DNA from: Isurus oxyrinchus
Taxonomy: Eukaryota
Assembly (NCBI GenBank): GCA_026770705.1
Contig: JANJGN010000024.1
Coordinates: forward strand, 14,818,001-14,882,000
Reading direction: 5' to 3'
DNA length: 64,000 nt
The notes under the pieces were generated by a model that made no database searches, was not told the origin of the DNA, and saw nothing but the letters and a program-made list of their open reading frames with translations. A program made the position numbers and the translations under genes. Positions within the stretch are counted from its first letter, which is position 1. Each line of letters starts with the position of its first letter. Below, piece by piece: positions 43,421 through 43,457 of this stretch.

Positions 43421-43457
43421 GTTCTGTCGAAGGGTCATGAGGACTCGAAACGTCAAC
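43421..43457 (+). ncRNA. Minimal type I hammerhead ribozyme motif (variant core)
   Basis: GUU-CUGUCGA-A-GGGUC augag GACUC-GAAAC-GUC|AAC; palindromic ACGU in place of stem III; predicted cut after 43454. Confidence 0.75.

Follow-up and report, generated by a model that had tools for sequence, protein, structure and literature searches.

Loss of hammerhead core A6 across the recently active lineage of a Penelope-like element in the shark Isurus oxyrinchus

The window analysed here is the whole stretch of 64,000 nucleotides taken from contig JANJGN010000024.1 of the Isurus oxyrinchus assembly GCA_026770705.1. At positions 39733-43522 it contains a head-to-head insertion of a Penelope-like element (PLE) with a reverse transcriptase (RT) and GIY-YIG, which carries a hammerhead-like motif in its pseudo-LTR. 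The insertion is flanked by a 15-bp target-site duplication (39720-39734, with one mismatch, on the left and 43521-43535 on the right, both + strand). The right arm, on the + strand, is a 5'-truncated PLE frame at 41597-43047 (frame given from 41554) with the end of the RT, a CX4CX2C linker and GIY-YIG. It is followed by the pseudo-LTR or 3' untranslated part of about 370 nt (43048-43419, with a pyrimidine tract at its end), the motif at 43420-43458 and a tail of 64 nt (43459-43522). The tail ends at the short stop point, +98 from core position C3, which is a putative start of reverse transcription in view of the 3'-end clusters and of work on an anole PLE (PMC11167929). The left, inverted arm (39733-41598, - strand) has its own motif with U6 and C7 at 39831-39869 and a long tail (+132).

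Eleven loci elsewhere in the genome, picked for close motif pairs, were examined. At three of them, tandem units of 3.3 kb were found in which U6C7 motifs are located on either side of frames of 925-926 codons free of stops. The first ATG was located 169-170 nt after C3. Counted from this ATG the ORF has 917 codons, and its RVT_1 and GIY-YIG matches were near or below the cut-off. The PLE protein had 1,438 relatives (best 5.9e-272), the nearest named ones being shark proteins with 64-68% identity. A single ORF with RT and C-terminal GIY-YIG was present, as in EN+ PLEs, and so were the partial tandems, pseudo-LTRs, inverted 5'-truncated copy and one-sided tail described for EN+ PLEs (PMC8557442). 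The CX4CX2C linker was seen in two of three intact frames. It matches the CX2-5CxxC between RT and EN of Neptune and Nematis (PMC8557442) and points to these clades. Three ORF comparisons gave dN/dS values of 1.16, 0.35 and 0.34; the value of 1.16 counts against the explanation favoured below. A non-LTR retrozyme, for which head-to-tail non-coding repeats with a hammerhead in each were required, was rejected because the tandem units are long and coding and the short copies are solo or head-to-head.

Other features were observed in the window. At 48538-49295, a young PLE arm has its RT part fused to inverted N-terminal sequence and is a rearranged copy. Exons of a major facilitator transporter (MFS_1), presumably resembling SLC37A4, are located at 23004-23453 and 28868-29329 (- strand), with several PLE copies in the introns. 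A frame at 54364-54741 (+ strand) looks by eye like a decayed histone H2B; a Pfam match was absent.

Judged from its sequence and from the alignment of copies, the motif at 43420-43458 (+ strand) is a minimal type I hammerhead motif. It is composed of stem I (UGUU at 43420-43423 and AACU at 43455-43458), the core C3-A9 (CUGUCGA at 43424-43430, C3 being 43424), an extra A between core and stem II (43431), stem II (GGGUC at 43432-43436 and GACUC at 43442-43446), loop II (AUGAG at 43437-43441), GAAA (43447-43450), the palindrome ACGU (43450-43453) and C17 (43454), with the predicted cut at 43454/43455. A preliminary description of this DNA had proposed such a PLE hammerhead layout, and this was upheld. 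The motif is no product of chance, as a 30-letter pattern for one subfamily had 79,613 exact matches in the genome and 0 in the control. Stem I had been given as AGUU/AACU, but its first letter in the present copy is a private U, which leaves 3 bp. Compared with the core C3 U4 G5 A6 N7 G8 A9, six positions agree and A6 is replaced by U (43427), followed by C7 (43428). The second core strand, G12 A13 A14 A15.1 and U16.1 H17, is intact (GAAA CG U C), and the palindromic positions 15.2-16.2 are constant as ACGU along the subfamily ladder.

Across families, 93.5% of 168 cells in stems I and II were paired (19 rows), compared to 1-47% in slid controls. The compatible variation of stem II claimed before was only partly borne out. 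The AGGUC family does have a two-sided change, the only one found in the stems (pair 10.1-11.1, four of 19 rows, one family) and weak as covariation, whereas the change from GAGUC to GGGUC is a one-sided wobble and the copy at 16296 has one mismatch within its stem II. The 39-nt monomer folded no better than its shuffles (z 0.14), as expected for a minimal hammerhead, and no hammerhead family was among the 10 Rfam matches at E up to 5. A dimer of two motifs can be drawn but is not the predicted minimum; in seven intact copies of eight folded, the double-hammerhead fold was 7-13 kcal/mol above the predicted dimer minimum, alike for A6 and U6 forms. An alternative helix, U6-A13/C7-G12, which would explain both U6 and C7, was rejected since its pair probability was about 0.01 or less in 19 of 19 copies folded. 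CpG decay was rejected as the origin of U6 because position 6 is outside any CpG. Some U6U7 copies within the young groups are decayed U6C7.

In the youngest subfamilies a second GGACTCGA is located directly upstream of the motif (43407-43415 and 43441-43449 in the window), and in predicted folds that include it stem II was lost (pair probability 0.16 or less). The A6U change also deletes an upstream AUG (A6 U7 G8; 43427-43429) in the likely 5' leader. An AUG in loop II (43437-43439), acquired by U6 subfamilies that arose later, opens an upstream frame of 18 codons (L002:1588-1760).

A profile search with 25 natural reference copies identified 21 related copies in the window, plus the copy at 49700, which is outside this count because its tail is too short. 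U6 was confirmed in all seven copies listed earlier (27272, 39831, 43421, 45804, 49700, 51490 and 56823). U6C7 motifs are located at 45804-45842 (- strand), in a longer young copy (45692-48553), and at 49700-49738 (+ strand), where a shortened tail retains only about 12 nt past the cut site. U6U7 motifs were found at 56823-56861 (- strand, middle-aged subfamily), at 27272-27310 (+ strand) and at 51490-51528 (- strand, with a GAGUC stem II). The last of these had been called young; it belongs to the earliest U6U7 group, about 5% from the group majority, the same as the A6U7 groups. Two U6 copies were absent from the earlier list, namely the inverted partner of 27272 at 27032-27070 (- strand) and an old, short U6U7 copy within an inverted pair at 39493-39531 (- strand). 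CUGAUGA at 16296-16332 (- strand, A6U7, divergent AGGUC family) and CUGAAGA at 38749-38787 (- strand, an old, short A6A7 copy) were both as claimed.

Only 141 of the 79,613 subfamily copies were A6; the C6 share was small and the remainder was U6. A loose descriptor gave 115,074 U6 (control 792), 19,053 A6 (control 610) and 3,615 C6 (control 65); exact matching undercounts old copies. A random sample of 56 loci at round coordinates (554 kb) contained 61 copies, 41 of which covered position 6. Of these 61, 36 belonged to the A6 class and 25 to the U6 class, so U6 is the surviving lineage and not the larger one. Age was measured as divergence, the distance to the nearest natural reference copy. 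U6 was present in 17 of 17 copies at less than 5% divergence, in four of eight at 5-8% and in none of 16 at 8% or more (17/17 young versus 4/24 older copies, Fisher p 5e-8). Nearest-neighbour distances among 33 copies were 0-0.036 for U6C7, 0-0.068 for U6U7 and 0.037-0.12 for A6, and the youngest groups were 0-0.3% from their own majority. The departure from the hammerhead core in the active PLE is real and lineage-wide. The statement that the recently active lineage carries U6 thus agrees with the young copies, but strict fixation of U fails, as a C6U7 branch has transposed. Contigs from runs labelled as three other organisms (632, 139 and 3 records) cover the motif, and none is listed as differing at position 6, a hint that U6 may be common to related species; one such contig record is identical over 72 nt and may come from the source of this DNA.

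A tree of 99 copies gave the ladder A6A7, A6U7, U6U7, U6C7. After masking of positions 6 and 7 and removal of one long row (98 rows), the A6/Y6 label changed four times, compared to 22.7 times after shuffling; two of the four changes are single copies found through the A6 search. A6 is the probable root, since its core is canonical and divergence falls along the ladder. The switch from A6 to U6 occurred at about 5% divergence, where early U6U7 and late A6U7 groups are similar in age. After U6, six changes were found in the 39 nt of the motif: pair 10.2 from A-U to G-U, three in loop II, H17 from U to C and N7 from U to C. One of the loop II changes is possibly an artefact of small groups, which leaves 5-6. 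Zero changes were found in the group majorities at the ten other core positions, in stem I and in the palindrome. All 5-6 changes are at hammerhead-tolerated positions, for which a per-change chance of 0.38 gives 0.003 (six) or 0.008 (five), a post hoc probability from groups of 3-9 copies hand-picked from the tree. Elsewhere, 28 changes in 45 nt were observed upstream and eight in 16 nt of the proximal tail. The distal tail had four in 42 nt and is conserved as well as the motif, so a low rate alone is not motif-specific. Among 211 U6-class copies, many from loci chosen by exact motif and therefore biased, no recurrent change was seen at the other core positions beyond CpG decay. The fold still looks constrained after A6U. 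The conserved core could also be caused by an overlapping protein-binding or promoter constraint.

C6U7 (CUGCUGA) was counted by hand in 37 of 100 among the matches listed of one upstream haplotype (1,480 in total), and in 8 of 8 among the matches listed of its ACC form, also by hand. C6 was present on both arms of three insertions. The C6U7 side branch is real and has transposed, and position 6 thereby changed again, from U to C. The branch has some hundreds of copies (loci L186, L189, L191, L195, L197 and L200). The view of C6 as mere noise was rejected only in part, since one upstream haplotype is a real branch; the remaining C6 copies are scattered, with arms that differ in three pairs and eight changes on the tree compared to 10 after shuffling. 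In transposed lineages only two core changes were found, both at position 6 (about 1 in 11 by chance).

The retention of 60-100 nt downstream of the cut site had been read as a sign of attenuation. This could not be maintained, as the tail is the region between the motif and the PLE reverse-transcription start sites (PMC11167929). At the random loci it was kept in 33 of 36 A6-class and 25 of 25 U6-class copies; being present in both classes, it is uninformative about U6. In young and old copies alike, the 3' ends cluster at +98 and +132 from C3, which places them 68 and 102 nt beyond the cut. Of 68 head-to-head pairs (loci L001-L180 and the window insertion at 39733-43522), 57 were classifiable, and in 51 of these one arm had the short tail (+98) and the other the long tail (+132; p 6e-10 versus 0.5). 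This suggests that reverse transcription starts at a different site on each of the two nicked target strands. The tail contains a donor-like GGTAAT (43502 in the window), which could bound, together with an acceptor-like CTTCAAG just before the ORF ATG (L002:1666-1757), a 90-nt intron containing both tail end points. The GGTAAT is missing from the oldest groups, and the intron joint was not seen in contigs.

Copying of cut RNA would give copies that start at +31. For U6, a pattern requiring loss of the GAAA side had 647 matches near the cut compared to 111,984 tails. The positions of these near-cut junctions were flat (20, 8, 19, 17, 13 and 23 over six positions; hand count of 100 among the matches listed). 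At the random loci no starts at +30 to +32 were observed in 27 A6 and 24 U6 copies. The genome-wide A6 pattern caught only 399 copies, a small sample with 13 near-site junctions, two of them at the site. An A6 excess of cut-site starts (+26 to +35; 5 of 78 solo A6 versus 1 of 148 solo U6 copies) was rejected, as none was at +30/+31 and several were alignment drop-offs in old copies. Cut-site ends do not separate A6 from U6. Since 5' ends at the cut site were found in neither class, both forms would have transposed from uncut RNA. The 5' ends of solo short copies were instead found at -12 to +1, the first stem I bases, in 24 of 78 A6 and 21 of 148 U6 copies, many of them at loci from the motif search. 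Examples of such starts, in YYAGTT context, are 38786, 39530 and 27076 in the window, L044:4908 and L052:5656. The start context is a pyrimidine tract followed by YYAGTT, which resembles the initiator consensus. It is also similar to the site in D. virilis at which a splice acceptor marks helix I (PMC4209133). None of 38 solo copies starting at -8 to 0 was a spliced copy joined at the AG before stem I, a search insensitive for old families, and a GT-AG joint at this AG was absent in contigs of four runs. The simplest reading of the pile-up is an RNA 5' end at the start of stem I, which is a candidate transcript start; a splice acceptor or a nuclease stop may also account for it.

Among the nearest known systems are the minimal type I hammerheads located in the pseudo-LTRs of metazoan PLEs (Cervera and de la Peña 2014, PMC4209133). 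Shared features are the short stem I and longer stem II, the extra nucleotide between 9 and 10.1, G10.1-C11.1, the palindromic 15.2-16.2, the place in both pseudo-LTRs, mostly solo copies and, as in D. virilis, an AG resembling a splice acceptor where helix I begins on its 5' side. In the text consulted from that paper the only core variant is U3-A8 and copy numbers are 2,000-9,000, whereas the shark element has U (or C) at position 6 across the active lineage and over 100,000 copies. Minimal PLE hammerheads are slow even with the canonical core (PMC4209133). In the Poseidon PLE of Anolis (Frangieh et al. 2024, PMC11167929), reverse transcription from two internal sites defines the tail and mainly copies uncut RNA, cleavage requires protein and hammerhead mutants insert normally in vitro. 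In both elements the motif is located where pseudo-LTR and ORF meet, the tail has two end points separated by about 34 nt, insertions come from uncut RNA and the cut site is without ends. The ORF of Poseidon starts inside stem II, unlike the ORF here, which starts about 170 nt after C3, and the CX4CX2C linker of Neptune/Nematis type and the U6 core are the shark element's.

The natural A6C hammerhead of phage Bcep176 (PMC3088659, PMC7151607) likewise has a pyrimidine at position 6 in an otherwise intact core, and the core of the C6U7 branch, CUGCUGA, is the A6C mutant core of these studies. The Bcep176 motif is a single-copy monomer with full stems that has been assayed, whereas the shark motif is minimal, multi-copy, mostly U6 and known from sequence. 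Natural A6C cleaves at below 0.1 per minute, slowly but detectably (PMC3088659). In a second hammerhead, A6C was over 10,000-fold slower in Mg2+ than in Mn2+ at 0.3 mM, with near-normal rates in Mn2+ (PMC7151607). Every single mutant of the core region around position 6 was low in a pairwise screen (PMC9901934). By analogy with these A6 mutants (PMC7151607, PMC3088659, PMC9901934), the U6 motif is likely attenuated; the repurposed fold that had also been suggested is not supported. Many PLE-linked hammerhead variants were reported by Lünse et al. 2017, according to the review PMC6765202. In the literature within reach, which did not include Lünse et al. 2017 or the supplement and alignment figure of PMC4209133, no natural A6U variant or assay and no U6 PLE hammerhead were found. 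The function of PLE hammerheads is described as openly unresolved in the parts consulted of PMC4209133, PMC8557442 and PMC11167929.

An explanation, in which we place about even confidence, could be that the surviving PLE lineage swapped core A6 for U, which is predicted to slow the ribozyme strongly, while the hammerhead shape is still kept and the element likely transposes uncut RNA. The motif, its pseudo-LTR place about 170 nt before the ORF start, the ladder, the change from U to C and the run-through of the cut site are established. Reverse transcription would start at the two tail points (+98 and +132) on uncut RNA, and the palindromic ACGU would let two motifs pair as a dimer. Residual cleavage, if any, would depend on the element's protein, as it does in the anole PLE. 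Position 6 would have been released because the cleavage rate matters little, with the other core letters and the stems under selection. The U6 motifs that flank intact 925-926-codon frames in the tandem units (three of eleven loci) count in favour of this explanation.

Given the low single mutants of the core (PMC9901934), U6 may also be simply dead. With cleavage dispensable, A6U would then have become fixed by drift in the one master lineage that survived, and the sequence would be kept for an overlapping transcript start, internal promoter or protein binding. We regard this as possible but tentative. It fits the insertion of PLE hammerhead mutants in vitro (PMC11167929), the Naiads, which thrive without hammerheads (PMC8557442), the pile-up of solo 5' ends in both A6 and U6 copies, which implies a second role of this spot, and the equal conservation of the distal tail. 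However, the changes are located at places that a hammerhead tolerates (N7, loop II, H17 kept non-G, a wobble), and both core changes in transposed lineages are at position 6.

It is unlikely that U6 is rescued by the element's protein, dimer context or metal preference and cleaves about as well as ancestral A6. Although PLE hammerheads are protein-assisted (PMC11167929), A6C is near-normal in Mn2+ (PMC7151607) and the rest of the core is intact over at least seven subfamily steps, A6C in the second hammerhead loses orders of magnitude in Mg2+ (PMC7151607), and the A6U step came without compensating change, apart from one loop II and one tail letter.

Selection for attenuation is very improbable. 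In this view the motif would head the mRNA, and cutting would cost the transcript its cap and first 35 nt, so that a slower ribozyme would give more protein and template and U6 would outlast its A6 sisters. The 5' pile-up at the first stem I base with its initiator-like YYAGTT and a contemporary A6U7 sister group without young copies in the sample are in its favour, but the U6 class is not more numerous than the A6 class at the random loci (25 versus 36 of 61), one origin cannot demonstrate selection and the 5' start of the mRNA at the motif is only putative. Single-lineage turnover is, moreover, usual for retrotransposons.

Beyond the favoured explanation of a slowed ribozyme on an uncut template, a more far-reaching and doubtful reading can be put forward. 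The shark Penelope hammerhead with a pyrimidine at position 6 could be a ribozyme gated by protein or metal that occupies the first 35 nt of the mRNA and was tuned down repeatedly (U6, then C6). The transcript would thereby keep its cap and template role, and catalysis would be kept for a later step.

More than 100,000 copies made after the change of a near-invariant core base are genomic support for the in vitro result that efficient cleavage is unneeded for transposition. Matched natural A6, U6 and C6 alleles are available within one genome. Most of the hammerhead-like motifs of this genome escape descriptors based on CUGANGA (115,074 U6 versus 19,053 A6). If the gated-ribozyme reading is true, over 100,000 dated copies together with their A6 ancestors would be a natural test of the purpose of the PLE hammerhead.
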